NCBI GenBank assembly: GCA_001797615.1
Contig: MGPV01000012.1
Location: 1 to 56,323, forward strand
Reading direction: 5' to 3'
Source of the DNA: Deltaproteobacteria bacterium GWC2_65_14
Lineage (GTDB): Bacteria; Desulfobacterota; Deferrimicrobia; Deferrimicrobiales; Deferrimicrobiaceae
DNA: 56,323 nucleotides
The notes beneath the pieces are model-generated. The model was not told the origin of the DNA, did no database searches, and worked only from the letters and a program-made list of their open reading frames with translations. Made by a program: the position numbers and the translations under genes. How positions within the stretch are numbered: the first letter of the stretch is position 1; every line of letters begins with the position of its first letter. Of this stretch, positions 2,559-56,323 are shown piece after piece.

Positions 2559-2669
2559 GGAAATGGCAAAGCGCGATCGAAGCCGGCGGATTCGGCGGAT
2601 GTACCTTCCCGGGGGGATGCGATACATTCGTGGAGTCGGCAGTCAGACAAGTTTGCGCGGAGGGGCGCG

Positions 2670-3668
2670 ATGGCCAAGACCAGGAGATCCTGGTCCGGGG
2701 GGGCGAAGCGGCGGACCAAGCCCCGCCCCATGACCAAGCCGGCCATGATGGACTGGGCGCTTCGGCTCCTGCGGCTCCTGAACGAGCGGAAGGTCCTCAC
2801 CTCGCGGGTCGTGGCCGAGGAGTTCGGCGTGAACATCCGGACGGCCCAGCGGTACCTCCTGTACCTTTCCGCCCTGCCGTGCGTTATCGCGGACGAGGAA
2901 AAGCACAGCTACACGCTCACATCGGACTACGTGGTGAGCGACAAGATCCTGAACGTCTCCGAGATGTCGCTGGTGTGCGCCCTGATCGACTACGCGGTCC
3001 ACATCTTCGGCCCCGAGCACTCCAAATTCCTCACGTCGCTCAAGAACCGGATCTTCCGGATGCCCGACGTCTACCGGATCGTCAAGGACGAGGCGATCGA
3101 CATGGAGAAGGTGGCGGCCGTCCAGCTCGACCTGGAGCGGCACATCAAGAACCGCGAGGTGATCTCCTTCGGCTACCGCAAGTCCGGCAAGCGCTACACG
3201 GTGGAGCCGTACCGGATCCTCTACGCGGGCGGGTTCTGGTACCTTGCGGCGCGGCACGACGGGATGCTGAAGAAATTCCTGCTCGACATGATCGAGGGGG
3301 TGCGGCCCGCGGGGAGGAGCTACGCGGAAGTCCCCGATCCGATCCGCCAAGCCCTGGCCGAGGCGCAGACCGCCTGGTTCCACGACGCCCCGCCCGACCG
3401 GGTGACGGTGGAGTTCGACGCGGAGGTCGCCCACTTCTTCGAGCGGAAGCTCTTCTTCCCCCGCCAGGAGATCGTGGAGCGGAAGGGAAACGGCAACCTC
3501 GTCCTGGCCTTCGACGCCCACAACGAGATGGACCTGCGCGAGCACCTCGCGCGCTGGATGCCGTACTTCCGGGTCATCTCCCCGGACCGATATCGGGAGT
3601 ATGTAGCCCATGTGGCAGGGGAGTGTGCGGGGAAGAACCGGGAGCAGGTCACCTATCCCTCGACTTGA
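2670..3668 (+). CDS. wHTH-WYL-WCX transcriptional regulator
   Basis: GGAGG RBS; HTH LTSRVVAEEFGVNIRTAQRYL; WYL core VEPYRILYAGGFWYLAA; C-terminal LREHLARWMPYFRVISP. Confidence 0.92.
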   Translation: MAKTRRSWSGGAKRRTKPRPMTKPAMMDWALRLLRLLNERKVLTSRVVAEEFGVNIRTAQRYLLYLSALPCVIADEEKHSYTLTSDYVVSDKILNVSEMSLVCALIDYAVHIFGPEHSKFLTSLKNRIFRMPDVYRIVKDEAIDMEKVAAVQLDLERHIKNREVISFGYRKSGKRYTVEPYRILYAGGFWYLAARHDGMLKKFLLDMIEGVRPAGRSYAEVPDPIRQALAEAQTAWFHDAPPDRVTVEFDAEVAHFFERKLFFPRQEIVERKGNGNLVLAFDAHNEMDLREHLARWMPYFRVISPDRYREYVAHVAGECAGKNREQVTYPST

Positions 3669-3716
3669 TGCGAGGGCAGTGATTCAATATGGGGGACCGG
3701 GCAGCGGAGGGGTTTC

Positions 3717-4049
3717 ATGAAGTGCGATTTGGATAAACTTATTTCACGGATTCTTGAATTCCGGGATCGGCGCAACTGGGCCCAGTTCCACAACCCCAAA
3801 GACCTGGCCCTCGGGCTTTCCGTCGAAGCCGCCGAGCTCAACGAACAGTTCCTGTGGAAAAAACCGGAGGACGCTGATCCGAAGCGGGTTCGGGAAGAAC
3901 TGGCCGACGTGCTCATATTCGCCCTGATGCTCCTCGAGAAGTACAAGCTCGACTTCGAGGAAATCGTCCTCGAAAAGCTTGCGGCTAACGAGGAAAAATA
4001 TCCGGTGGACAAGGCCCGCAACCGCGCAGCGAAATATACCGACCTCTGA
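3717..4049 (+). CDS. MazG-like (all-alpha) nucleotide pyrophosphohydrolase
   Basis: FRDRRNWAQFHNPKDLALGLSVEAAELNE...EELADVLIF...KLAANEEKYP. Confidence 0.92.
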   Translation: MKCDLDKLISRILEFRDRRNWAQFHNPKDLALGLSVEAAELNEQFLWKKPEDADPKRVREELADVLIFALMLLEKYKLDFEEIVLEKLAANEEKYPVDKARNRAAKYTDL

Positions 4050-4052
4050 CGA

Positions 4053-5936
4053 ATGAGACTCTACGCCGGCACCTCGGGACAGTTCGTCGAAGACACGGTC
4101 CTGAACCAGATCGCCGGCAAGCTCAGGAATGCCTTCTTCGGTCATTACCGGTACAACCCGCCCCAGGCCGAAGTCCATTCGTGGCAGAACTCTCTCCGGG
4201 CCATGGCCGGGATACTCCAATACGGAGAACTGCTGGACCATGGAGTCATGCTCGAGTACCAGCTTCCTCTCACCTCCCGTCGTCTCGATTTCATGGTCAC
4301 CGGAAAGGGGCAGAGCAACGCCGACAACGCGGTGATCGTCGAGCTCAAGCAGTGGGAGAAGTGCGGCCCTGCGGACGGGGAGAACGAGGTTGCCACATTC
4401 GTTGGGGGAACGACGCGGGAGGTCCTGCATCCGTCGGCGCAGGTAGGACGCTACCGGATGTACCTGTCGGATACCCATACGGCATTCCACGAGGGAAATG
4501 ACCCTGTGTCCCTTGCGGCATGCGCCTATCTCCACAACTATCCCCATGATCCCGATGATGTTCTGTACGATACGAAGTTTGAAGGCGTGCTGAGAAGCGA
4601 TCCGATTTTCACCATGGATGATGCTCCGGCACTCATGGGCTATCTGCAGGAGAGGCTTTGTTCCGGCCGGGGCATGGAGGTCCTGAAGCGGGTCGAAGAA
4701 AGCCGTTACCGGCCCAGCCGAAAGTTGATGGAGCACGTGGGGCAGGTCATCAACGGAAATTCCCGGTATGTCCTCCTGGATGAGCAGGTCGTCGCGTACG
4801 ACAAAGTGCGCGCGTTGGCGAAGAAGGGGTTCCATGACAGGCGCAAGACCGCCATCATCATCAAGGGAGGCCCCGGGACCGGCAAATCGGTGATCGCCAT
4901 CAAGCTCATGGCGGACCTGCTGCTGAACAGCTACAACGCCCACTATGCCACGGGGTCGAGGGCATTCACGGAGACGCTCCGGAACATCATCGGGAACCGG
5001 GGAGCCGTGCAGTTCAAGTACTTCAACAGCTATTCGGCCGCCCAGGCCGATGAGATCGATGTCCTGATCGCGGATGAGTCTCACCGCATCCGCAAGACCA
5101 GCGCCAGCCGCTTCACTGCCTCGGCAGATCGCTCCGACCTCGAGCAAATAGGGGAACTGTTGCGGGCCGCCAAAGTGTGCGTTTTCCTGATCGACGACGT
5201 CCAGGTAGTGCGGCCGAACGAAATCGGCTCCGTGGAGTATATCCGGCGGCACGCGCAGGCGATGAAATGCAGCATCTTCGAATACGAGCTCGAGGCACAG
5301 TTCCGCTGCAGCGGATCGGACGCCTTCGTGAACTGGATAGACAATACCCTAGGCATCCGGCGCACGGTCAACGTCCTGTGGGAAGGGAACGAGTCCTTCG
5401 ACTTCGAGATCTTCGATTCACCCCAGGCGCTTGAGGGAGCCATCCGGGACAAAGCCGCTCAGGGTTACACGGCCCGGATGAGCGCCGGCTTCTGTTGGCA
5501 ATGGTCGAAGCCCAGGCCGGACGGGACCCTGGTGGAGGACGTGGCGATCGGCGATTACCTGCGGCCCTGGAACGCAAGGCCGGAGGCATCCCGGCTGGCG
5601 AAGGGAATTCCCAAAGCATCGCTGTGGGCCCATCAGCCGGGGGGCATCGATCAGATCGGCTGTATCTACACGGCGCAAGGTTTCGAGTTCGATTTCGTGG
5701 GCGTCATATTCGGTGCGGACCTGATCTACAGGTTCGACCGGCAGGAGTGGGTCGGGGACAGACGTCAGTCGTACGATACCGTTGTGAAGAGATCCGGAGA
5801 CAAATTCGTCAACCTGGTAAAAAACACCTACAGGGTCCTTCTTTCAAGGGGTATGAAGGGGTGTTACGTTCATTTCCTCGACAGGGAAACAGAGAACTTT
5901 TTCAGGAGCCGGATGGAGACGGGGAATCGTCCGTAG
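4053..5936 (+). CDS. DUF2075-family protein: PD-(D/E)xK-like nuclease fused to a P-loop helicase (Schlafen group-3 helicase type)
   Basis: LEYQLPLTSRRLDFMV...IVELKQW; Walker A GGPGTGKS; Walker B LIADESHR; GCIYTAQGFEFD; NTYRVLLSRG. Confidence 0.9.
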   Translation: MRLYAGTSGQFVEDTVLNQIAGKLRNAFFGHYRYNPPQAEVHSWQNSLRAMAGILQYGELLDHGVMLEYQLPLTSRRLDFMVTGKGQSNADNAVIVELKQWEKCGPADGENEVATFVGGTTREVLHPSAQVGRYRMYLSDTHTAFHEGNDPVSLAACAYLHNYPHDPDDVLYDTKFEGVLRSDPIFTMDDAPALMGYLQERLCSGRGMEVLKRVEESRYRPSRKLMEHVGQVINGNSRYVLLDEQVVAYDKVRALAKKGFHDRRKTAIIIKGGPGTGKSVIAIKLMADLLLNSYNAHYATGSRAFTETLRNIIGNRGAVQFKYFNSYSAAQADEIDVLIADESHRIRKTSASRFTASADRSDLEQIGELLRAAKVCVFLIDDVQVVRPNEIGSVEYIRRHAQAMKCSIFEYELEAQFRCSGSDAFVNWIDNTLGIRRTVNVLWEGNESFDFEIFDSPQALEGAIRDKAAQGYTARMSAGFCWQWSKPRPDGTLVEDVAIGDYLRPWNARPEASRLAKGIPKASLWAHQPGGIDQIGCIYTAQGFEFDFVGVIFGADLIYRFDRQEWVGDRRQSYDTVVKRSGDKFVNLVKNTYRVLLSRGMKGCYVHFLDRETENFFRSRMETGNRP

Positions 5937-5987
5937 CAGAGAGCAGGAAGGGATCGTCATGAGCCCGCAGGCCAGGCGAGCGAGTGC

Positions 5988-6899
5988 ATGAATGCATTCG
6001 TAGGGATCACCGACTGGGACTGGTTCGATCTGCTGCGCACCCGCCCGGAGCTCGAGGAGGTGAACTTCTGGCAACCTTCCGGCTCCCGCCAGTTCCGTGC
6101 CCTGAACCCCGGCGAGCTGTTCCTCTTCAAGCTGCACAGTCCGCGGAATTACATCGTCGGTGGAGGTCTCTTCGCGCATTCCAGTCTGTTGCCGATCAGC
6201 CTTGCGTGGGAGGCCTTCGGGATGGCAAACGGCGCCGCTGATCTCGTGCAGATGCGGTCCCGCGTCGAACGATATCGCCGTCAAGGGCAGGATCATTCCA
6301 CTGATTACATCATCGGATGCATTCTCCTCGAGCAGCCGTTCTTCCTCCGTGAAGACCAGTGGGTTGGGGTGCCGCACGATTGGAGCCCGAACATCGTCCA
6401 GGGGCGCGGCTACGACCTGACGGTTGAACCCGGCCTGACGCTTTGGGCCCGGTTGCAGACTGCAAGAGGAGCCGCCTTGGAGGTGCGGGAAGAAGAAGCG
6501 AGGTACGGCAGGCCGATCTTGTCACTACCCCGTCTTGGCCAGGGATCCTTTCGCGTGATAGTGACGGATGCGTATGAGCGGCGTTGCGCGCTGACCAATG
6601 AGCGTACTCTTCCTGCTCTGGATGCCGCCCATATCAAGCCGTATTCGGACAGCGGCGGGCACCGGGTCGAAAACGGCCTGCTTCTGCGCAGAGACCTTCA
6701 CGCCCTGTTCGACCGGGGCTACGTGACCGTGACGCCGGACCTTGTCGTCGAGGTCAGCCGCCGCATTCGGGAGGAGTTCGAGAACGGTCGTGACTATTAC
6801 AGGCTGCACGGCGAACCAGTCCGTCCGCCCGGAAACCCGGTGCATCGCCCATCCGCGGAATACCTGAGATGGCACAACGAGTGCGTCTTTCGAGGATAG
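5988..6899 (+). CDS. HNH endonuclease (HNH_2 type) with a possible PUA/EVE-like N-terminal domain
   Basis: C-terminal CALTNERTLPALDAAHIKPY...NGLLLRRDLHALFDRG; N-terminal VNFWQP...LNPGELFLFKLHSPRNYIVGGG. Confidence 0.85.
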   Translation: MNAFVGITDWDWFDLLRTRPELEEVNFWQPSGSRQFRALNPGELFLFKLHSPRNYIVGGGLFAHSSLLPISLAWEAFGMANGAADLVQMRSRVERYRRQGQDHSTDYIIGCILLEQPFFLREDQWVGVPHDWSPNIVQGRGYDLTVEPGLTLWARLQTARGAALEVREEEARYGRPILSLPRLGQGSFRVIVTDAYERRCALTNERTLPALDAAHIKPYSDSGGHRVENGLLLRRDLHALFDRGYVTVTPDLVVEVSRRIREEFENGRDYYRLHGEPVRPPGNPVHRPSAEYLRWHNECVFRG

Positions 6900-10171: not shown

Positions 10172-10584
10172 ACATCGTCCTCGACACGAACGTCCTCGTG
10201 GCGGGCCTGTTGTCGCCGTTCGGTCCGTGCGGGGAGATCGTACGGATGGTTTCCTCCGGGGAATTGACCCTCTGTCTCGATGCCCGGATCGTGACCGAAT
10301 ACAGCGAAGTCCTGAAACGGCCGAAATTCCGGTTCGAAGAGGAAAAGGTCGATGCGTTACTGGATTTCATCGACCTCAGGGGGCGGACGGTGGCGTCTTC
10401 GCCCCTGCGGAAAGCCCTTCCCGATCCCGCCGACGAACCGTTCCTTGAGGTCGCAATCGCCGGGCGGGCGGCATGTCTTGTCACGGGGAACCGGGTCCAT
10501 TTTCCCGGCAGGCTGCGCCAACGCGTGATGGTTCTCACGCCGCGGGAATTTCTGGACCGATACAGGAAGCGAACCGTCCTCTAA
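10168..10584 (+). CDS. PIN-domain toxin (VapC-like, PIN_3 type)
   Basis: IVLDTNVLVAGL...EYSEVLKRPKF...DPADEPFLEVA...LVTGN. Confidence 0.9.
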   Translation: MNIVLDTNVLVAGLLSPFGPCGEIVRMVSSGELTLCLDARIVTEYSEVLKRPKFRFEEEKVDALLDFIDLRGRTVASSPLRKALPDPADEPFLEVAIAGRAACLVTGNRVHFPGRLRQRVMVLTPREFLDRYRKRTVL

Positions 10585-10682
10585 GGACGGACGAGAAAAA
10601 TATCAGCAATGCTCTCTGTCGCGACAAGTTCGGAACCCTGTCCGCGATTGGCCGGAATACATGGATCGAGGGCAGGCATCCG

Positions 10683-11309
10683 GTGACACACGGCAAGAGC
10701 CGGTCGAAGCCGGCCGTGACGATGCAGGACGTCCGAACCCGTCTTGCGACAATGGACAAAGGCACGCTTGCCGACATGCTCGTCGATCAGGCGATGGAGG
10801 ACGACCGATTGCGGCAGCGTCTGCTCATGAAGGCGGCGAGGAAAGGCCCAAAGGGGCTTGATGTGGCCACGTATCGTCGGGCCATCGACGAGGCGGTCGA
10901 CGCAGGCGGTTTCGTGGATTACCGCGCCGTCGAAAAGGCGATCGAATCCGTCGACGACTCGGACGGCCACATGGGCGGAATCCTCGAACGTCTCCAGGAA
11001 ATCCATCACGAGGCGTGCAAGAAGGCCAAACCCGAGCCGGAAGCGTTGGCAAGGAGGCTCTTCGAATGGGAATTGCGAACGGATTGGGATACCTTCCACG
11101 GCGCCGCGCAGACGTACGCGCGTATCCTTGGAGAGGAAGGGCTGGCGGTCTACCGGAAGCTCGCCGAGGCGGAATGGGCCAAGGTGCTGGCCGTGGGCCA
11201 TGGAGGGCGGCTCCTGTTCGTCGTGATCGTGGTCAGAAAGGACATGATCCGAGTCATATCGGCGCGGGACATGAATCGGAAGGAAAGGAAGGTGTACGAG
11301 TCATCATGA
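10683..11309 (+). pseudogene. Chimeric ORF: internally deleted helical protein (SWIM-finger-associated type) fused in frame to the C-terminal half of a BrnT toxin
   Basis: Helical part ...GGFVDYR|AVEKAIESVDDSDG...AEAEWAKV, then |LAVGHGGRLLFVVIVVRKDMIRVISARDMNRKERKVYE (BrnT RxISAR motif) from ~11187. Confidence 0.7.
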
Positions 11310-43337: not shown

Positions 43338-44264
43338 CTACCGGGACTCCCGGGCCTCGAGCCACCTCTCGGCGTCGATCGCCGCGCGGCATCCGCATCC
43401 CGCGGCGGTGATCGCCTGCCGGTAGACGAAATCGTGCACGTCGCCCGCGGCGAACACCCCCTCGACGCTGGTCTTCGAGCCCTCGTGGACCCGAATGTAA
43501 CCCTTCTCCATCCCGATCTGCCCCTCGAAGATCTTCGTGTTGGGCTCGTGGCCGATCGCGACGAAGAGGCCGTCGATCTTCCGGGTCGATTCCTTCCCGT
43601 CGACGGTGTTCCGGATCCGGACCGAGGTCACCTCCTTCTTCGAAGGATCGTGGATCTCCGTGACCACGCTGTTCCAGAGGAACTCGATTTTTTCGTTCTT
43701 CCTCGCCCGGTCGGACATGATCCGGGAGGCCCGCAGCTGCTCCCGCCGGTGCACGACCACCACGTTCGAAGCGAACCTCGTGAGGAAGAGCGCCTCCTCG
43801 AGCGCGGTGTCGCCGCCTCCGACCACCATGACCTCCTTCTCCCGGAAGAAGGCGCCGTCGCAGGTGGCGCAGGTGGAGACCCCGCGGCCGAGAAGCGGTT
43901 TCTCGGAGGGAAGCCCCAGCATCTTGGCCGATGCGCCGGTCGCGAGGATGAGGGCCTCCGCTTCGTAGCTTCCCTCCCCGGTTTTCACCACGAACGGCTT
44001 TCTTCCCAATACCACCGAGGTGGCGACTTCCATCCGGTATTCCGCGCCGAACCGCTGGGCCTGCCGCTTCATCATCTCCACGAGGTCCGGACCCTGCACC
44101 CCCTCGGGGAAGCCGGGGAAGTTCTCCACGCCGGTCGTGAGGGAGAGCTGGCCGCCAGGCTCGTGGCCTTCCAGCACGAGGGGAGCGAGATTGGCTCTGG
44201 CCGTGTAGATGGCCGCCGTGGATCCGGCGCAGCCCGATCCGAGGATGATGACGTTGCGCGTCAT
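43338..44264 (-). CDS. trxB: Thioredoxin reductase
   Basis: GGQLSLTTGVENFPGF, STCATCDG, GGGDTALEE, HRREQLRA, FAAGDV, YRQAITAAG. Confidence 0.96.
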   Translation of the reverse strand: MTRNVIILGSGCAGSTAAIYTARANLAPLVLEGHEPGGQLSLTTGVENFPGFPEGVQGPDLVEMMKRQAQRFGAEYRMEVATSVVLGRKPFVVKTGEGSYEAEALILATGASAKMLGLPSEKPLLGRGVSTCATCDGAFFREKEVMVVGGGDTALEEALFLTRFASNVVVVHRREQLRASRIMSDRARKNEKIEFLWNSVVTEIHDPSKKEVTSVRIRNTVDGKESTRKIDGLFVAIGHEPNTKIFEGQIGMEKGYIRVHEGSKTSVEGVFAAGDVHDFVYRQAITAAGCGCRAAIDAERWLEARESR

Positions 44265-44434
44265 GGGGATCCCTCCGTCGTTCTTCTGGGATGGAAAAAG
44301 TGTCGCCTTCCGCAGCGGGAGTTGTCAAGCCCGCCCGCCTTGTCCCGCGCGGCGAAACCTGCGCCGGATCCGCGGCATCTCTACCTATGAAAAGGAAAAG
44401 AACGCTGAAATACGTTACGAGAGGAGGAAGCGAC

Positions 44435-44470
44435 ATGTGCAAGACTTGTGGTTGCGGGGGCAAAAAGTAG
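44435..44470 (+). CDS. 11-aa micro-ORF MCKTCGCGGKK (CxxCGC metal-binding motif)
   Basis: Strong RBS GAGGAGG 7 nt upstream; TAG at 44468-44470; terminator 23 nt downstream. Confidence 0.6.
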   Translation: MCKTCGCGGKK

Positions 44471-44492
44471 TCTGGGAACGAAGACCGAAATG

Positions 44493-44520
44493 AAAGGGAG
44501 AGGCTGTCCTCTCCCTTTTT
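44493..44520 (+). terminator. Intrinsic terminator after the micro-ORF
   Basis: AAAGGGAGAGG-CTGT-CCTCTCCCTTTTT. Confidence 0.88.
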
Positions 44521-44554
44521 CTCGCGGGGAGCGGAACCGAAAAGGAGGAGCGGA

Positions 44555-44926
44555 ATGAAAACGATCGACCCGTTCAAGCCGGGAGGCAGGGGGGTGATGG
44601 CGACGGCGGACGCCAGCGGAGCGGTGAACACCGCGATCTACGCTTCCCCGAGGATCATCGACGAGCACACCGTCGCATGGGGGATGACCGAACGACGCAC
44701 CTACCAAAACGTCCGGGAGAATCCCAACGCCTCCTACCTCTACATCGATCCCGGGGGAGGGTTCCTGGGGGTCCGGCTCAGCCTCCGCCTGAAGGAGCTG
44801 AAGGACTCCGGGCCGCTGCTGGAGGAGATCCGGGAAAATACCCGGACGGTCTCCAGTCCGTCGGCGGCGGAGGCGGTCAAGTACGTCGCCTATTTCACGA
44901 TCGTCGAGAAGAGACCTCTCGTCTGA
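44555..44926 (+). CDS. Pyridoxamine 5'-phosphate oxidase-like FMN-binding protein
   Basis: GVMATADASGAVNTAIYASP...TYQNVRENPNASYL; own AGGAGG RBS. Confidence 0.85.
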   Translation: MKTIDPFKPGGRGVMATADASGAVNTAIYASPRIIDEHTVAWGMTERRTYQNVRENPNASYLYIDPGGGFLGVRLSLRLKELKDSGPLLEEIRENTRTVSSPSAAEAVKYVAYFTIVEKRPLV

Positions 44927-44987
44927 CGGCCTGCCGGGCTTCCGCGTCCCGTTCGGTCCGGCGCAACCTTCGAGGGGGCGAAAGACC

Positions 44988-46103
44988 ATGCGGCATGTTT
45001 TCCCGTCGGTCGCGGCGATTCCGATCCTGATCTGGGTTCTTGCGTTCCCTTCCGGCGCGGGCGCCATGGGCGCGAAGCCGGGCGCGATCCGTCTTCCCGC
45101 AGGATTTCACCTCGAGCTGTATTCCGGGGAGGTCCCCGGCGCGCGATCGATGGCGCTGGGCGACCGGGGGACCCTGTTCGTGGGGACCCGGAAAGAGGGA
45201 GTCGTCTATGCGGTGCGGGATGAGGACGGCGACGGGAAGGCGGAGCGGGTCGTCGTCCTTGCCCGAGGGCTCGACCTTCCCAACGGAGTGGCTTTTCGCG
45301 ACGGCGCTCTGTACGTGGCCGAGAAAAGCCGCGTGCTCCGGTACGACCGGATCGAGTCCCGCCTCGAGAACCCGCCCCGCCCCGTCGTGGTCAACGACTC
45401 TTTTCCCCGGGATGCCCATCACGGGTGGAAGTTCATCCGGTTCGGGCCGGACGGGCTTCTCTATGTCCCGGTCGGCGCCCCCTGTAACGTCTGCGAGCGG
45501 GAGGATCCGCGCTATGCCTCAATCCTCCGGATGAACGCGGACGGAACCGGGCTGGAGCCGTTTGCCCGGGGGGTCCGCAACACCGTGGGGTTCGACTGGC
45601 ACCCGGAAACCGGGGAGATGTGGTTCACGGACAACGGGCGGGACTGGATGGGGGACAACGTTCCGCCGGACGAACTGAACCGCGCTCCACGGCAGGGGCT
45701 CCACTTCGGCTTCCCGTACTGGCATGGAGCGAAGATTCCGGACCCGGAGTTCGGGGGGAAGATGGCGAAGGATGCGTTCGTTCCCCCCGAGATGGAACTG
45801 GGGCCCCACGTCGCCTCCCTGGGGATGCGCTATTACACGGGACGCATGTTCCCGCAACGGTACCGGAACCAGATCTTCATCGCGGAGCACGGCTCCTGGA
45901 ACCGCAGCGAACCGATCGGATACCGGGTGACCGTGGCCCGCTTCGAGAACGGCAGGCCCGCCGGGTACGAACCCTTCGCGGAAGGGTGGCTCACGGAGAA
46001 CGGAGCGTGGGGCCGCCCTGTCGACGTGCAGGTAATGCCGGACGGCGCCCTGCTCGTATCCGACGACAGGAAGGGGGCGATCTACCGCATCGTCTACCGA
46101 TAA
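44988..46103 (+). CDS. Exported PQQ-dependent sugar/sorbosone dehydrogenase (beta-propeller)
   Basis: Signal peptide; HHGWKFIRFGPDG, GAPCNVC, GVRNTVG, IAEHGSWNR, GRPVDV, SDD. Confidence 0.9.
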   Translation: MRHVFPSVAAIPILIWVLAFPSGAGAMGAKPGAIRLPAGFHLELYSGEVPGARSMALGDRGTLFVGTRKEGVVYAVRDEDGDGKAERVVVLARGLDLPNGVAFRDGALYVAEKSRVLRYDRIESRLENPPRPVVVNDSFPRDAHHGWKFIRFGPDGLLYVPVGAPCNVCEREDPRYASILRMNADGTGLEPFARGVRNTVGFDWHPETGEMWFTDNGRDWMGDNVPPDELNRAPRQGLHFGFPYWHGAKIPDPEFGGKMAKDAFVPPEMELGPHVASLGMRYYTGRMFPQRYRNQIFIAEHGSWNRSEPIGYRVTVARFENGRPAGYEPFAEGWLTENGAWGRPVDVQVMPDGALLVSDDRKGAIYRIVYR

Positions 46104-50846: not shown

Positions 50847-53800
50847 TCAGGGCCGGGTCGGACCGACCGGAACCGGCTCGACTACCGGAGGGGCCTGGCC
50901 GGAGAGGATCTCCAGGACCTTCCGGAGGAACTCCTTTTCTCCCCGCTCCTCCGGTTCGGGGATCAGGCTGATTCGCACCCGTTTTCCCCCGACCAGGAAA
51001 TGCTGCTCCGCGAGGGCGGTCCGGACCATCTGGCGGAGGGCGGCCCGGATCGCCTGTCCCTCTTCCGTCCGGGGGGAAGGGGCGGTCACGACGAGGCTTC
51101 CGTCTTCCTGGATCGAGCGCATCGCCTCCGTGAACGCGGACAGAATTTTCCCGAGGTGCGACAAAAACCGCTCCCTGTCCTCCGCGTCGAACCGGAGGAG
51201 GGAGGGTTCGGCGGACGACCGGCCCGCGAAGAGGACCGCCCCGGAGTGGGGCGGGCCGCCCAGGAGCGAGGGATCCAGCCAGGGCTCGAGGACCCGCGGG
51301 TCGGAGAGATCCATTTCCCGTGAAATCGGCTCGGAACCGCCTTTCCGCCGCGCTCCCCCCGGGTCGGGGGAGGTTCTCCCGATCTCGACCTTTCCCGGCT
51401 CGCCGGCCGATTCGACGATCGTCGTCACCCCGGCTCCCTCGCGCAGCAGCGCCTGCGCGCATCCGGTCGCGGCGCCGTTCCTCTGCACCGGACCGATGGA
51501 GAGCACGAGAAAGGAGGCGCCCGCCAGCGGCCCCTTCCTGGCCGCCGCGGATGGAGGGAACGAGGAAAAGGCGGGAAGGGAGGTCACCCCGAGGAAGGGG
51601 TCCTCCAGAAAGGAGGCATTCTTGGCCCCGAAAAGCACCGCGTCGGCCACCTGCTCGTTCGTGGGAGGAGCGGCCGGAACGGTGGAACGGAACCATTCCT
51701 TCGCACGGCCGTACCAGGATTCCATCTCGGAGCGGACCGCCTTCGGCATCCGGCTTTCCGCGACGGCGGAGAGGAACGCCGCCGCCGCCTTCTCCCGCCG
51801 GGACGCGGGAGAGGACCGGTCGAACGATTCGATGAACAGCTCCTCGATCTTCTTCCGCTCCGCCGCCCCCATCTCCCGGATCCGTCCGAACTGCGCGGCG
51901 AACTGGACGGCGTAGTTCCGCATCACCCAGTCCATCCGGGGTCCGGCGATCAGGCTCGGCGCGACATCCACGATCCGGATCCCGTCTGCCGCAAGTCCTT
52001 TCCGGAGGCAGAAGGAGAGCGACTTCAGCAGGATTTTCGACACCGTGTAGATGGTCCGGAAGATGTAGGGGTGGTCGGCGTAATGGGTCGACACGTTCAC
52101 GATCGCGCCTCCCCCGGTCTGCTTCCGGAGGATTTCCCGAAGCAGGGAAATGGCCGTCCAGGGACCGAGAAAGTTCGCGCGCAGGACCTGCTCCCAGCTC
52201 TTCCGGTGCTCCCGCAGGACGTCCCCGATGAGGGAAAACTCCCCCCCCGCGCCGGCGTTGTTCACGAAGGCGTCGATCCGGCCGAAGCGGTTGCGGGTCT
52301 CCTCGATCAGGGCGCGGACCCTGGCGGGTCGGGAGACGTCCGCGTCGACCCAGATGGAGCGGGCGCCCAGGCGCCGGATCGCGGACAGTACCGCGTCACC
52401 CGCCTCCAGGTCCGCTTTCGCCCGGGCGGCCTCCTCTCCGGAGAGCCCGGCGGCGGTGGGGCGCCGGCTGGCAATGACGACGGTCGCCCGTTCCGCGGCG
52501 AAGCGGAGAGAGATCTCCTTGCCGAGGTTCCGGATCCCCCCGGTGACGACCACGACCTTCCCGGCCATCGAGCCCGGCGCCTCCGCCGGCTCGGCCGGAA
52601 GACGTGCGATGGCGTTCACCTCGTCGGGAAGGAGGGTGACCCCCGACACGTTCTTTCCCTCCTCGAGCAGCCAGAGGACCGATGCGGCGGTCCGTTCCGG
52701 GTCCGGCTGGCGGTTCCGGCCGTCGGTCCTTCCGGGAAGGATCAATCCGATGTTCACCGCGCTCACCCGGGAAGGGGCGGTCCCGTCGGCCTGCGCCTTC
52801 CGCATGAGGGCGCGCTCCATCGCCTCGGTGGCCACCGCCGGGCGCAGCATCGACTGGAACACCTGGACCAGGTTGCGCTCCCGGATCGAGGGAACGCCGG
52901 AGAGGTCGGGGCCGACCAGGACGATGCTCCCGTCGACGCCGCCCCGGTCCATTTTCCGCTCGGCCTGCCAGCAAAGGAGCCGGGGAACGTATCCGAACCG
53001 GTCGACCGCAGCCGTCCACTCCTCGAAGGGGATCGTGGTCAGCGGACGCTTCCAGTCCGCGCTGCCGGTGAAGTGGAGCAGCAGGTCCAGTCGCGGGAGG
53101 CCGTCGAAGAGCTCCTGGACCTCCGCGAGGTTTCCCAGCTGCGCGGGAAACACGGTCGCCATCCCCTCGCCGCCGCCGGCGTTGATCTTCATGGCCAGCG
53201 CCTCCATGTCGTCCGTGCGGCTTCCGGCCAGCACGACGTTCGCTCCGGCCCGGGCCAGCGCCTGGACGGTCGCCGAGAACAGGGTGATGTCGTACCCTTG
53301 CGGGCTGTGCAGCGTGGCCAGGGCGACCTTCCCGACCATGTCCGGGTAGCGGGAGAGAAGAGCGGGGGAGGGAATCACGCCGGGAGGCTGTTCGTAGGTG
53401 ACCCCGCCCATGGGAAAGCGGTGTCCCCCTTCCGTGCGGCGGAACTCGACCCTTCCCATGTCGAGGGCGACGCGGGCGAAGTCCCGCGGGAGCACGAACT
53501 CCCGGGTCACCGTCCTGTCGAGGGTGTCCCGCTCCAGCGACTCGGGGGACACCTCCCTCCCGATCCTCGCCCTGGCCTTCGAGCCCTTGTCGAAGACGCC
53601 GGACCCCCGTTCGATCCGCTCCGTGGAGACCGCGGCCGGATTCAGGGAGAAGACGGTGATCTGTTTTTCCGCCAGCATCCAGGCGAGGTAGTCCCCCAGC
53701 GCCAGCTTCGCGGACTGGGCGGAGGTGTAGGGGAGGCGGCCGGGATAGGCGTGGAGCACGTGCCGGTGGATGCTTTCGCTGTAGAAGGTTCCCACCATGA

Positions 53801-55862
53801 CGATGACCCCGCCGTCCTTCTGGTTCTCCATCATCCGCGCCGCCTCGAGGCTGGCGAGCCAGGATCCGGTCAGGTGGATCGCCACCGCTTCCCGGTAGAG
53901 ATCGAAGTGGGATTCCCGGTAGGCCGATCCGAACTCCACCGGCCCCGACACTCCCGCGTTGTTGTAGAGGATGTCGATCCGGCCGAAGGCGCGCCCGATC
54001 TGCTCGAACATCTCGCCGACATATTTCGGATCCCCGACGTCCCCCTGCACGATGAGCGTCTGGTTCGTGAGGCCCAGGTGGCGGATCAGGTCGTCCATGT
54101 CGGTCTTCGTTTCCTCGAGCGGGGTGTGTCGCCTCCCGGTGATCACCACGTTTCCCCCGCGGACCGCCGCCTCCAGCGCGAGTGCCCGCCCCATCCCGGT
54201 GCCGCCGCCGGTGATGACCACCACCTTTCCGGCGAGCGAGGTGTCCGGGTACCGGACGTGGTTGAAGGAGTGGGTCCTCGCCACCTCCTTCCGGATGAGG
54301 TGGCTCGCCCGCGCCGGGTTCGTTTCCTCCCCGAGGGAGAGGAAGAGAAGGTAGAGGGGATCGCCCGTTCCGGCCGATTCGTAGAAGGCGGCCATCTCCG
54401 CACGGGCCTCGTCCGGCAGCGCCTGGTAGAACCGGTACCCTTCGATCGCCCCCTTCACCGCCACCGCGAACTGCCGGTCGAGCTTCAGCTTCTCGTCCGG
54501 AAAGGCTCCGTCGCGGACGAACCGGCAGGCCAGGATGGCCGGAATCCCCAGCGGAGCGGACCCCTCGGCGCTCCCCTTCAGGAGCGCCTCCACGAAGGAG
54601 CGCTCGAACACCCAGTGGACCCGGTCGTGCCCGTCGATGAACTTTGCGGAGGGCCGCTCGAGGTCGGGGAGGACATGGAGGATCCGGGCGCCCCCGGTCT
54701 CGCCGAGGGGATCGGGACCCCCTTCTGCCGGAGCGGGGAGGTCCGCCTTCTTCCGGATCTTCCGGAAGAGTTCGATCGATCCGTTCAGCAGCCCCGCCAG
54801 CTCCTTCGCCTTCCTGCCCGCCCACCCCTCGGCCTTTACGGCCCCGGATTCCAGGCGAAGCCCCTCGTAGGCCGGGTCGGCTCCCAGCGCGTAGGACCGT
54901 ATCGCGACTCCCGTGAGGAGCTCCGCTTCCTTCCGGACCGATTCCGGAGCCCCGGAATCCTTCTCCACCTTGCGCAGGTAGGTCAGGGCGCGCTCGGAAT
55001 CCCCCTCTTCGAGCGATCTTCGCGCAGACGCGATGCGATCGCGGGCCTCCTCCTCCCGCACCGATGCGCGCACTTCCTCCACCAGGTTCCGGTAGCGGGA
55101 CCCCATGCTCCGGGCCAGATCCACCACGCGCGTCTTCCGGGCCTGGTCTGCGCCGAACCGCGCCTCGAGCTCCTCCATGCGGAATTCGTCAGGCTCGTAG
55201 GAGGTGCCGAGGATCCGGTCGAAATAGGCCTCGTCGCGGTCCCGGCCCGCCTCCTCCGCGATGAAGCGGTTCAGGTCGCTCACCTCGGTCCCGTCCGGAC
55301 CCGGTGGGGAGGCGTTGTAGCCCGACTCGCAGAGAACGGCGACCATGTGGGGCAGCCCCAGGACCCATTCGAGGAGGGGATGGAGCACGGCCTGCAGGAG
55401 CAGGTGCGGCCGCGTTTCCGCCTTTGCGACAAACGCCCGGGGGAGGAAGATCCGGACCTTCGCCCCTCCCAGGGAGAGCAGCCCCTTTTTCCCCTCCCAG
55501 AGAAGCTCCCCGTCCCGCTCCACGAGGAGCACCTCGCAGGCCGGGCGGGCGTTCTCCCTGGGGAAGCCGGTATCCTCCCCAAGGTCCACGACCCGGACGC
55601 CGACCTCCCCGCTTTCCAGGGTTCGGAGGATGCGCGTCCGGATCTCTTTCGCGGCGGCCGGATCGATCTCCCGGAGGATGGGGGAAACGGGACGCTTCTT
55701 CAGGATCGACAGAATCCGGTCGAGCGTGGAGGCGGGAAGATCGGCAATCCTCCCCTCGTTACCTTTTTCCCGGATGAGGGAGGCGATCCGCCGGATCTCC
55801 TCGAAGGAGATCGAACGGTCCCCCGGGGCTTTTTTCGCGATCGGTCCGGCCGGTTCTTCCAT
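50847..55862 (-). CDS. 1671-aa multi-SDR protein: ~540-aa orphan domain, Mcr-C-like SDR pair, Mcr-N-like SDR pair (domain-permuted malonyl-CoA reductase-like)
   Basis: TGGGTGMG/YNNAG from aa ~543; TGGIRNLG/VNNAG from aa ~1099; YxxRxxY motifs at aa 706-712 and 1266-1272; two degenerate Rossmann domains. Mcr similarity is judged from my memory of the Chloroflexus sequence. Confidence 0.75.
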   Translation of the reverse strand: MEEPAGPIAKKAPGDRSISFEEIRRIASLIREKGNEGRIADLPASTLDRILSILKKRPVSPILREIDPAAAKEIRTRILRTLESGEVGVRVVDLGEDTGFPRENARPACEVLLVERDGELLWEGKKGLLSLGGAKVRIFLPRAFVAKAETRPHLLLQAVLHPLLEWVLGLPHMVAVLCESGYNASPPGPDGTEVSDLNRFIAEEAGRDRDEAYFDRILGTSYEPDEFRMEELEARFGADQARKTRVVDLARSMGSRYRNLVEEVRASVREEEARDRIASARRSLEEGDSERALTYLRKVEKDSGAPESVRKEAELLTGVAIRSYALGADPAYEGLRLESGAVKAEGWAGRKAKELAGLLNGSIELFRKIRKKADLPAPAEGGPDPLGETGGARILHVLPDLERPSAKFIDGHDRVHWVFERSFVEALLKGSAEGSAPLGIPAILACRFVRDGAFPDEKLKLDRQFAVAVKGAIEGYRFYQALPDEARAEMAAFYESAGTGDPLYLLFLSLGEETNPARASHLIRKEVARTHSFNHVRYPDTSLAGKVVVITGGGTGMGRALALEAAVRGGNVVITGRRHTPLEETKTDMDDLIRHLGLTNQTLIVQGDVGDPKYVGEMFEQIGRAFGRIDILYNNAGVSGPVEFGSAYRESHFDLYREAVAIHLTGSWLASLEAARMMENQKDGGVIVMVGTFYSESIHRHVLHAYPGRLPYTSAQSAKLALGDYLAWMLAEKQITVFSLNPAAVSTERIERGSGVFDKGSKARARIGREVSPESLERDTLDRTVTREFVLPRDFARVALDMGRVEFRRTEGGHRFPMGGVTYEQPPGVIPSPALLSRYPDMVGKVALATLHSPQGYDITLFSATVQALARAGANVVLAGSRTDDMEALAMKINAGGGEGMATVFPAQLGNLAEVQELFDGLPRLDLLLHFTGSADWKRPLTTIPFEEWTAAVDRFGYVPRLLCWQAERKMDRGGVDGSIVLVGPDLSGVPSIRERNLVQVFQSMLRPAVATEAMERALMRKAQADGTAPSRVSAVNIGLILPGRTDGRNRQPDPERTAASVLWLLEEGKNVSGVTLLPDEVNAIARLPAEPAEAPGSMAGKVVVVTGGIRNLGKEISLRFAAERATVVIASRRPTAAGLSGEEAARAKADLEAGDAVLSAIRRLGARSIWVDADVSRPARVRALIEETRNRFGRIDAFVNNAGAGGEFSLIGDVLREHRKSWEQVLRANFLGPWTAISLLREILRKQTGGGAIVNVSTHYADHPYIFRTIYTVSKILLKSLSFCLRKGLAADGIRIVDVAPSLIAGPRMDWVMRNYAVQFAAQFGRIREMGAAERKKIEELFIESFDRSSPASRREKAAAAFLSAVAESRMPKAVRSEMESWYGRAKEWFRSTVPAAPPTNEQVADAVLFGAKNASFLEDPFLGVTSLPAFSSFPPSAAARKGPLAGASFLVLSIGPVQRNGAATGCAQALLREGAGVTTIVESAGEPGKVEIGRTSPDPGGARRKGGSEPISREMDLSDPRVLEPWLDPSLLGGPPHSGAVLFAGRSSAEPSLLRFDAEDRERFLSHLGKILSAFTEAMRSIQEDGSLVVTAPSPRTEEGQAIRAALRQMVRTALAEQHFLVGGKRVRISLIPEPEERGEKEFLRKVLEILSGQAPPVVEPVPVGPTRP

Positions 55863-55863
55863 G

Positions 55864-56323
55864 CTATCTCTCCCCGGCCGGCAGCAGCTCGAGGAACGAG
55901 GACTGGAGGGGGTCCTTTTTCAAAAAGCGTCCGACCCATTCCTGTCCTCCGGGAGACGCCGTCACCTTCCCGAAGATCCGGGCGTCGTTCTCGAGGCCGG
56001 AGGCGAACCCGTGCTCGTATCCGTGGCGCATCGCAAGCAGCGCCTCCCGGGCGGCCGCCATCCGCGCGGTCCGAAGATCCGCCGCACGTTCCTTGTCCGG
56101 CGCGGCGCAGGCCAGGATTTCCCGGACTTCCGGGCGGGCCAGGACCGCGGAGAGCTCCGCGGACTGTGTCCCCGCGATTCCGTCCCAGTGCTTCGGGGAC
56201 CTCGCCCGTTCCCCGGAGGCGAACTCGCGGGCTCGGCGGACGGCGGTCGAAAGCGCGGTGGCGGAGGAGGAAAACTCGTCCGCCAGGCCGGCCTCGACGG
56301 CCGCGTAGCCGTCCACCGGCTCG
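55864..56323 (-). CDS. 3' end of a crotonase/enoyl-CoA hydratase-domain protein (runs off the window)
   Basis: VDGYAAVEAGLADE and AMRHGYEHGFASGLENDARIFGKV...GGQEWVGRFLKK are crotonase C-terminal helices; stop lies 1 nt before the next ATG. Confidence 0.75.
   Translation of the reverse strand, partial: EPVDGYAAVEAGLADEFSSSATALSTAVRRAREFASGERARSPKHWDGIAGTQSAELSAVLARPEVREILACAAPDKERAADLRTARMAAAREALLAMRHGYEHGFASGLENDARIFGKVTASPGGQEWVGRFLKKDPLQSSFLELLPAGER

Follow-up and report, generated by a model that had tools for sequence, protein, structure and literature searches.

A micro-gene of 11 codons lies between trxB and the gene for a PNPOx-like split-barrel protein in the window analyzed here, a 56,323-nt stretch of DNA from Deltaproteobacteria bacterium GWC2_65_14 (GenBank assembly GCA_001797615.1, contig MGPV01000012.1). 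The open reading frame (ORF), which encodes MCKTCGCGGKK, is very probably a real coding gene and is kept in more than 30 distinct loci, comprising at least 12 species-level Deferrimicrobiaceae-type genomes and contigs of very different G+C content. With a probability of about 0.6, its product would be a translated, soluble, mononuclear metal-binding micropeptide with a site of the HypB type, serving as a metal buffer or mini-chaperone. Binding of a thiophilic metal as such is slightly more probable than this complete picture, and the assignment of nickel as the physiological metal is tentative. What appears to be new is the occurrence of a known metal site as an independent, widely conserved micro-gene. 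Within the literature searched, the coverage of which did not extend to subscription journals, neither a stand-alone CxxCGC micropeptide nor a split HypB was described.

Organization of the micro-gene

The micro-gene would be self-contained within 44354-44520, where a candidate promoter and a leader of approximately 50 nt precede a strong Shine-Dalgarno (SD) sequence, the 11 codons and an intrinsic terminator:

44354..44379, plus strand: candidate bipartite promoter motif GAAACC-N15-GCATC of the micro-gene, proposed on the basis of conservation
44421..44427, plus strand: SD sequence GAGGAGG, with a 7-nt spacer to the ATG at 44435
44435..44470, plus strand: 11-codon ORF MCKTCGCGGKK followed by TAG (44468-44470)
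44493..44520, plus strand: rho-independent terminator with an 11-12 bp G+C-rich stem, a CTGT loop and a T5 run

The codons that follow the ATG are TGC AAG ACT TGT GGT TGC GGG GGC AAA AAG TAG. The terminator stem, AAAGGGAGAGG / CCTCTCCCTTT, occupies 44493-44518 around the CTGT loop, and the T-run ends at 44520. This hairpin, also listed by the terminator scan, dominates the local fold, with a free energy of -20.1 kcal/mol (z = -4.7) that was reached by none of 200 shuffled sequences. An earlier reading of the window (the original prediction) had described GAGGAGG-N7-ATG, 11 codons with three cysteines, TAG and a strong intrinsic terminator, all divergent from trxB; each of these elements was found at its predicted position, and trxB occupies 43338-44264 on the minus strand. 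An Rfam scan of 43500-45500 (E ≤ 10) returned chance-level sub-threshold matches only and no riboswitch or leader family, the best match being Termite-leu on the terminator itself (30 bits versus a gathering score of 51).

Evidence for a conserved coding gene

Seven contigs that were assembled separately (ENA, JGI, Logan and NCBI records) agree in every base of the 290-nt trxB-PNPOx intergenic region, and an eighth contig differs by a single base outside the ORF. A 94% identical strain departs from the window's ORF at three sites (44446 T>C, 44458 G>C and 44464 A>G), each a synonymous third-position change; its ORF is free of indels, whereas several occur in the non-coding part. Both results speak against an indel in the GGGGG or AAAAA runs, which the original prediction had flagged as a risk.

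Relatives were first reached via the PNPOx-like protein (55 homologues) rather than via the peptide, which avoids circularity. Five lineages share the MscS-trxB / PNPOx synteny (among them L009/10, L011/12, L013/14 and L036; L numbers denote collected loci), and the 11-codon ORF is present in each, with PNPOx-like proteins that are 67-74% identical. The peptide versions are MCKTCGCGGKK, MCKSCGCGGKK and MCRTCGCGGKK, preceded by a purine-rich SD sequence at the equivalent position. Sorted by codon position, 0, 2 and 7 of the 11 columns each are variable, both second-position changes being located at the two x residues of CxxC, whereas the 33 nt flanking the ORF on either side are variable at 24/33 and 33/33 columns (Fisher p = 6e-11 for positions 1 and 2 versus the flanks). 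The confinement of changes to third positions and x residues next to scrambled flanks indicates that the micro-ORF is under purifying selection. The stop position and the 11-codon length are conserved, with TAG in most members and TAA in a few, and the open frame upstream of the micro-ORF is of variable length and unconserved. Synteny beside trxB in relatives, which the original prediction had proposed as a check, shows the Cys codons and the stop to be conserved. Two outcomes that the original prediction had named as adverse, a longer ORF in relatives and an absence of conservation, were not observed, as the 11 codons are kept and the peptide is strongly conserved. The micro-ORF is absent near the more distant PNPOx-like homologues in rearranged contexts (L037, Geotalea L015/16, L038 and L039). 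The first of these (L037:1-2869) exhibits trxB followed by ferritin/rubrerythrin, rhodanese and MutY genes and then the PNPOx-like gene.

An artefact or relic, be it a frameshifted or truncated longer gene, a decaying 5' fragment of hypB or a chance ORF within a small RNA, is extremely improbable. It would agree with the lack of annotation, the micro-ORF being beneath gene-caller thresholds, and with the absence of a 59-residue in-frame extension from the protein collection, where an exact-sequence look-up also failed to find the 60- and 28-residue forms described below. Against it stand the fixed length and stop position, the purifying-selection pattern and the occurrence of ATG-TGY-N6-TGY-GGN-TGY once in the 56-kb window, where dinucleotide-preserving shuffles give an expectation of 0.00. 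A frameshift in a longer ORF was rejected on the basis of the seven identical assemblies, the exclusively synonymous strain changes and the unconserved upstream frame.

Size and membership of the family

A scan for M-C-x-x-C-G-C-G-G-K-K in one genome per GTDB species yielded 19 loci, with approximately 0.1 expected by chance according to our own estimate. Eleven are of the Deferrimicrobiaceae type with shared synteny, and five Parasutterella/Sutterellaceae loci encode a 60-68 residue His-rich protein that matches in its first 11 residues. A metagenome scan, in which codons 9-11 were left free and a stop was required at codon 12, gave 94 loci, of which 72 matches were parsed. The tails of the 22 accepted members are GGKK (19), GKKK (1) and GNKK (2), plus GKKD (1), and all fit G-[G/N/K]-K-[K/D]. 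SD sequence and terminator were both detected in 20 of the 22. The GKKD member has an SD sequence and no detected terminator, and the two GNKK loci (L100 and L103), which are of low G+C content (40-42%), have no SD sequence; a single synonymous base separates the ORFs of these two, and their flanks have nothing in common. The other 50 matches have unrelated tails, no detected terminator, an SD sequence in only nine cases and, for the most part, an upstream open frame. Since the scan left codons 9-11 free, the tail G-(G/N/K)-K-(K/D) is selected rather than imposed by the search. Besides the cysteines, residues G6, G8, G9, K10 and K11 are conserved, and Cys2-x-x-Cys5-Gly6-Cys7 follows Met directly in all family members (MCKTCGCG at 44435-44458 in the window). 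Members of high G+C content have a purine-rich SD sequence, with the spacing to the ATG unchanged. The hosts are groundwater and sediment bacteria.

Two side observations concern the loci collected. One, L017 (DATHRT010000233.1), is labelled 'Candidatus Limnocylindria bacterium' and displays the full Deferrimicrobiaceae-type synteny, with proteins that are 63-81% identical to those of the window; the bin is probably mislabelled. In the metagenome set, six loci (L080, L087, L099, L110, L131 and L133) share a recurrent element, ATGTGCAAA-NNN-TGCGGYTGYGGTCAACTCCTGTAG followed by ...CCCTTAATTCGCAGCAAAGTGAGCAAAA..., which is conserved together with its flanks across contigs of approximately 46% G+C and has neither SD sequence nor terminator. 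We regard this element as a probable repeat or RNA element and not as a relative of the micropeptide.

Relationship to the HypB metal site

The original prediction had equated the N-terminal MCxxCGC with the high-affinity site of HypB, in agreement with the published description (PMC12284835). In HypB, Cys2, Cys5, Cys7 and the N-terminal amine hold Ni(II) in a square-planar geometry, the affinity of this CxxCGC site for the ion is picomolar, and both Ni and Zn are bound by a short maquette peptide of HypB (PMC12284835). The site is essential for hydrogenase maturation in Escherichia coli, yet E. coli HypB variants that retain CxxCGC and lack the rest of the N-terminal extension do not support maturation, and the nickel of the high-affinity site is not passed to HypA (PMC12284835). 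Met1-Cys2-x-x-Cys5-Gly6-Cys7-Gly8 of the micropeptide is identical in motif and position to E. coli HypB (MCTTCGCG...), and the HypB site needs a free N-terminal amine, a position that the micro-ORF provides by having the motif directly after the start codon. In contrast to HypB, the motif forms part of a product of only 11 residues that has no disordered extension, no His-rich stretch, no GTPase domain and no hyp operon. Glu9 of E. coli HypB, reported to play a role in metal selectivity (PMC12284835), is replaced by Gly.

The mature peptide is predicted to be CKTCGCGGKK, produced by removal of Met1. A small residue at position 2, here Cys, is compatible with the action of methionine aminopeptidase. 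The free amine and the thiolates of Cys2, Cys5 and Cys7 would then form a tetradentate site as in HypB, which may bind a thiophilic metal ion in a 1:1 ratio, Ni(II) being the most likely candidate and Zn(II) or Cu(I) possible ones. Nickel is in use in this lineage, the Ca. Deferrimicrobium genome encoding a group 1b [NiFe] hydrogenase (PMC9386147). The Gly-Gly-Lys-Lys tail would contribute flexibility, solubility and charge balance, and the peptide may act as a soluble metal buffer or mini-chaperone.

A precedent for the motif on a separate polypeptide is seen in Parasutterella/Sutterellaceae (L019:3613-7321; also L021, L024, L025 and L030), where HypB is present in two pieces. The first piece is a 60-68 residue protein that begins with MCVTCGCGGKK, continues into a His-rich region of approximately 50 residues, and has its own ribosome-binding site (RBS) and a hairpin after the gene. 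The second is a 224-residue, G-domain-only HypB whose match to the E. coli HypB model is confined to positions 75-286, and the gene order is hypA, the 60-68 residue ORF, the 224-residue hypB and hypF. A fused relative (P0089, 286 residues) begins with MCTTCGCGHSG followed by a His-rich stretch, and other relatives start with MCTTCGCG(N/S/Q)GE. Against the NCBIfam HypB_prefix_1/2 models (NF053667, NF053668), the 60-residue form scored 28.9 bits on HypB_prefix_1 (cutoff 30) and the 68-residue form 26.0 (cutoff 35). As judged from sequence and gene order, the 60-68 residue protein is a naturally split HypB N-terminus, and its role in hydrogenase maturation is evident because of the His-rich region and the position between hypA and hypB. 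It resembles the micropeptide in being encoded by a separate ORF with its own RBS and hairpin and in differing from the window's version at one x position within the first 11 residues; unlike it, the 11-residue form has neither the His-rich continuation nor the hypA/hypB setting.

Small Cys/His-rich proteins that buffer or donate thiophilic metals offer a further comparison. The CopZ/HMA-type MxCxxC chaperones, the metallothioneins (SmtA/BmtA, MymT) and Hpn are similar in this respect, and one micro-ORF (L103) lies directly upstream of genes for a CsoR-type repressor and an HMA-containing P1B ATPase. These proteins comprise 50-70 residues and are folded or cluster-forming, as opposed to 10-11 residues and one predicted mononuclear site in the micropeptide, and there is no sequence relationship between them. 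Measured against a metallothionein, a multi-metal cluster protein of about 50 residues, the micropeptide with its 11 residues and three cysteines could provide a single site at most.

Promoter, terminator and read-through

The flanking features on either side of the micro-gene are as follows:

43338..44264, minus strand: trxB, thioredoxin reductase, divergent neighbour (Pfam Pyr_redox_2, E = 5e-52; CATC in the translation)
44299..44327, minus strand: likely sigma-70-type trxB promoter, TTGACA (44327-44322), 17-nt spacer, GACACT (44304-44299)
44542..44926 including the RBS AAGGAGGAG, plus strand: PNPOx-like split-barrel protein of 123 residues (gene 44555-44926)

The match of the PNPOx-like protein to Pfam PNPOx_N (E = 1.7e-4) is below the curated cutoff.

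Upstream of the micro-ORF, the strict motif G[AG]A[AT][ACT]C-N14/15-GCATC is present in 25 of 38 distinct loci, 44-74 nt from the ATG and within 44-59 nt in all but one locus, and several of the remaining loci contain near-matches as judged by eye. It accompanies the micro-ORF in other genomic contexts, with strict matches in L032, L061 and L078 and a near-match in L026. A looser form, G[AG]AA[ACT]C-N13-18-GCATC, has five further matches in the window, all intragenic and judged uninformative. A sigma-70 consensus scan found no match for a micro-gene promoter. Promoters of the extracytoplasmic function (ECF) type have an AAC-containing -35 element and a short C/T-rich -10 element, and the upstream motif presumably resembles them. 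GAAACC-N15-GCATC is a candidate micro-gene promoter of an alternative-sigma, ECF-like type. A sigma-54 reading was rejected by eye on account of the unfit GG-N10-GC spacing. The spacer between the two blocks often contains a G+C-rich near-palindrome (CCGGATCCGC at 44360-44374 in the window; CTCCCGGGAG in L023/L033/L035/L070), which could be an operator or a chance occurrence in G+C-rich DNA. In the upstream alignment, conservation is highest in the block TTGTCAA. No trxB promoter was called by the consensus scan; TTGACA/GACACT on the minus strand is the likely one.

Terminators across the family were called by per-sequence hairpin detection. In nearly all members, an intrinsic terminator was detected at 12-44 nt from the stop codon, the distance being 24 nt in the window, with stems as different as GGGAGAGG/CCTCTCCC, GGGGGGAGGG/CCCTCCCC, GGGGTGTG/CGCACCCC (L028) and GCGGGGGGAGGA/TCTTCCCCCCGC. 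RNAalifold applied to the MAFFT alignment recovered only five pairs, as the stems cannot be aligned by sequence. The terminator is conserved as a structure and not as a sequence.

In the window, the T-run and the ATG of the PNPOx-like gene are approximately 32 nt apart; several clades have 17-50 nt at this place, and others 116-140 nt. Because a gap of 17-50 nt leaves no room for a promoter, the PNPOx-like gene is probably co-transcribed through terminator read-through in the window's clade; the terminator would yield the short transcript as the main product, with residual read-through supplying the downstream gene. The original prediction was correct in assigning the next gene its own RBS, whereas a promoter of its own is improbable at ~32 nt, and the designation 'stand-alone' suits the peptide but not the PNPOx-like neighbour, which probably depends on read-through.

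Metatranscriptome data were available as Logan contigs of relatives, which are unstranded, of low depth and may include DNA. At least five runs yielded contigs that include the micro-ORF of relatives. In L070, contigs 583-690 and 397-704 end at or just past the T-run (685-692), and depth is zero from 705 to ~790 in three runs; in L082, a 184-nt contig ends at the terminator. In all, three contigs end at or just past the terminator with a coverage gap next to it, which is suggestive of a short terminated transcript. Groundwater RNA runs from the window's own sample showed no coverage.

Genomic contexts

The Deferrimicrobiaceae-type neighbourhood is syntenic and comprises TreT, methyltransferase, MscS, trxB, PNPOx-like and Liv genes. 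Other settings are diverse. In L026 and L032, the identical 11-mer has a CheB-like gene on one side and a hybrid histidine kinase gene downstream; in L078/L061, the micro-ORF comes after an ankyrin gene, with a convergent MCP gene opposite and no downstream gene. A ferritin gene is located downstream in L077. In L103:574-4621 (minus strand, 40% G+C), MCKTCGCGNKK without an SD sequence is directly upstream of a CsoR/RcnR-family repressor gene (PF02583). The genes that come next encode, in this order, a membrane protein with a lycopene-cyclase domain, a DUF5676 protein and a P1B ATPase that has two HMA domains, and the hairpin of this locus is followed by a possible CsoR-type operator (TATACCCCTACC...). 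A 28-residue Lys-rich version (MCGKCGCGGKKKKTAKKKAVKKKVAKKK), a single instance, occurs in L018:4055-5881 with a lone rpsJ on one side and a LarA-like (Lar_N) gene on the other. Versions of 16 (L020) and 12 residues (L022, labelled Bacillota) are upstream of a PGM/PMM gene. The CsoR/CopA-type and ferritin contexts point to a broader handling of metals.

Alternative functions

The original prediction had proposed a metallochaperone, metal buffer, redox peptide or leader. A functional peptide is favoured over a pure leader because the non-Cys residues are conserved and the downstream genes differ, with none in L078/L061; the metal-related roles have been derived from the likeness to HypB. A narrower role, in which the micropeptide acts in trans as the N-terminal module of a HypB that lacks its CxxCGC site and serves [NiFe]-hydrogenase maturation solely, is unlikely. 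It would agree with the Parasutterella HypB N-terminus being a separate polypeptide with near-identical first 11 residues, with the need for CxxCGC in E. coli maturation, and with the group 1b [NiFe] hydrogenase encoded in the Ca. Deferrimicrobium genome (PMC9386147). However, approximately 40 short-form loci never adjoin hyp genes, and a tblastn search with HypA and the HypB G-domain found matches only in the Parasutterella loci among all loci collected. The 11-mer alone may also not suffice, given the failure of the E. coli variants without the rest of the extension (PMC12284835), and the CsoR/CopA-type and ferritin contexts reach beyond hydrogenase maturation. Less probable still is a cis-acting leader, in which translation of the Cys-rich ORF senses Cys-tRNA, metal or redox state and tunes read-through into the PNPOx-like gene, the peptide being a by-product. 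Like the attenuation leaders trpL and hisL, the micro-gene combines a very short ORF rich in one amino acid (three Cys in 11 codons) with a terminator and then a gene, which in the window's clade and several others begins 17-50 nt after the T-run, and one relative's metatranscriptome contig crosses the terminator into that gene. In contrast to such leaders, no antiterminator is seen in minimum free energy or centroid folds, where the terminator stands isolated, and the alignment has no conserved block complementary to a terminator arm; on these two grounds the attenuator model was rejected. In most loci, a ribosome terminating at the stop would be too far away to reach the stem, five non-regulatory Gly and Lys residues are conserved, and the downstream gene varies (PNPOx-like, ferritin, CsoR-type, histidine kinase, PGM/PMM or LarA-like), is 116-140 nt from the terminator in other clades, or is missing, as in L078/L061, where the gene opposite is convergent and there is no target for regulation. 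Together, the missing antiterminator, the stop-stem distance, the non-Cys conservation and the varying downstream gene make a true attenuator unlikely.

Two redox-based proposals are each very unlikely. A thiol peptide tied to trxB, for example a dithiol/disulfide buffer or a substrate of the thioredoxin system, would take up the CxxC pair and the trxB adjacency that is kept throughout the Deferrimicrobiaceae-type loci. The whole neighbourhood is syntenic, however, and the adjacency is therefore of little weight; the micro-ORF also occurs without trxB, and the exact CxxCGC spacing after Met1 is a signature of the HypB metal site and not of a redox motif. With the same low probability, the micropeptide could be a Ni- or Cu-thiolate mini-cofactor with redox or catalytic activity of its own, such as a scavenger of superoxide or peroxide, expressed from a stress-type (ECF-like) promoter near trxB, ferritin or rubrerythrin-type genes and representing a class of 'micro-metalloenzymes' that is widespread and lacks annotation. 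The model would be the 'nickel hook' of nickel superoxide dismutase (N-terminal HCxxPC), in which the amine and Cys thiolates hold square-planar Ni within the first 6-7 residues and of which short maquettes are active. The use of the N-terminal amine and Cys thiolates as a Ni site is common to both, as an analogy only; unlike the hook, the micropeptide has no His1, three Cys instead of two, and no remaining enzyme.

Several observations weigh against a metal-binding micropeptide with a HypB-type site. Translation of the micro-ORF is something that we infer from its sequence. The likeness to HypB covers seven or eight residues and is compatible with either homology or convergence. No hyp, hydrogenase, urease, LarA or nickel-transport genes were found in the 56-kb window, and the best 120 of 8000 candidates in a protein search with the Parasutterella G-domain included relatives from Proteobacteria alone. 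The metal-related neighbours (L103, L018 and L077) are single cases, and the neighbours as a whole are heterogeneous, those of the PGM/PMM, histidine kinase and PNPOx-like types having no link to metals. Metatranscriptome contigs run past the proposed promoter into the trxB side. In the window's clade, where the space before the downstream gene is too short for a promoter, the ORF and terminator could instead have a cis-regulatory role, although this is improbable.

If metal binding by the micropeptide is correct, few gene-encoded metallochaperones or metal buffers would be smaller, and the micropeptide would be a naturally occurring parallel to the synthetic maquettes of HypB used in bioinorganic chemistry. 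It would also imply that the HypB high-affinity site can occur as a free module and come under selection in that form, which bears on the role of this site in HypB itself, the nickel of which does not go to HypA (PMC12284835). The micro-gene presents a clear case of what is probably a functional gene far beneath annotation cut-offs.

Other features of the window

Elsewhere in the window, an ORF of ~1690 residues on the minus strand (50847-55919) contains at least two short-chain dehydrogenase/KR domains along with large stretches without Pfam matches. Genes for a WYL/WCX regulator, a MazG-like protein, a Schlafen-group-3 helicase and an HNH endonuclease stand in a row at 2559-6899, with a NUDIX gene next; this run looks like a defence or mobile island. 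A BrnT-like toxin match is located at 10449-11309.

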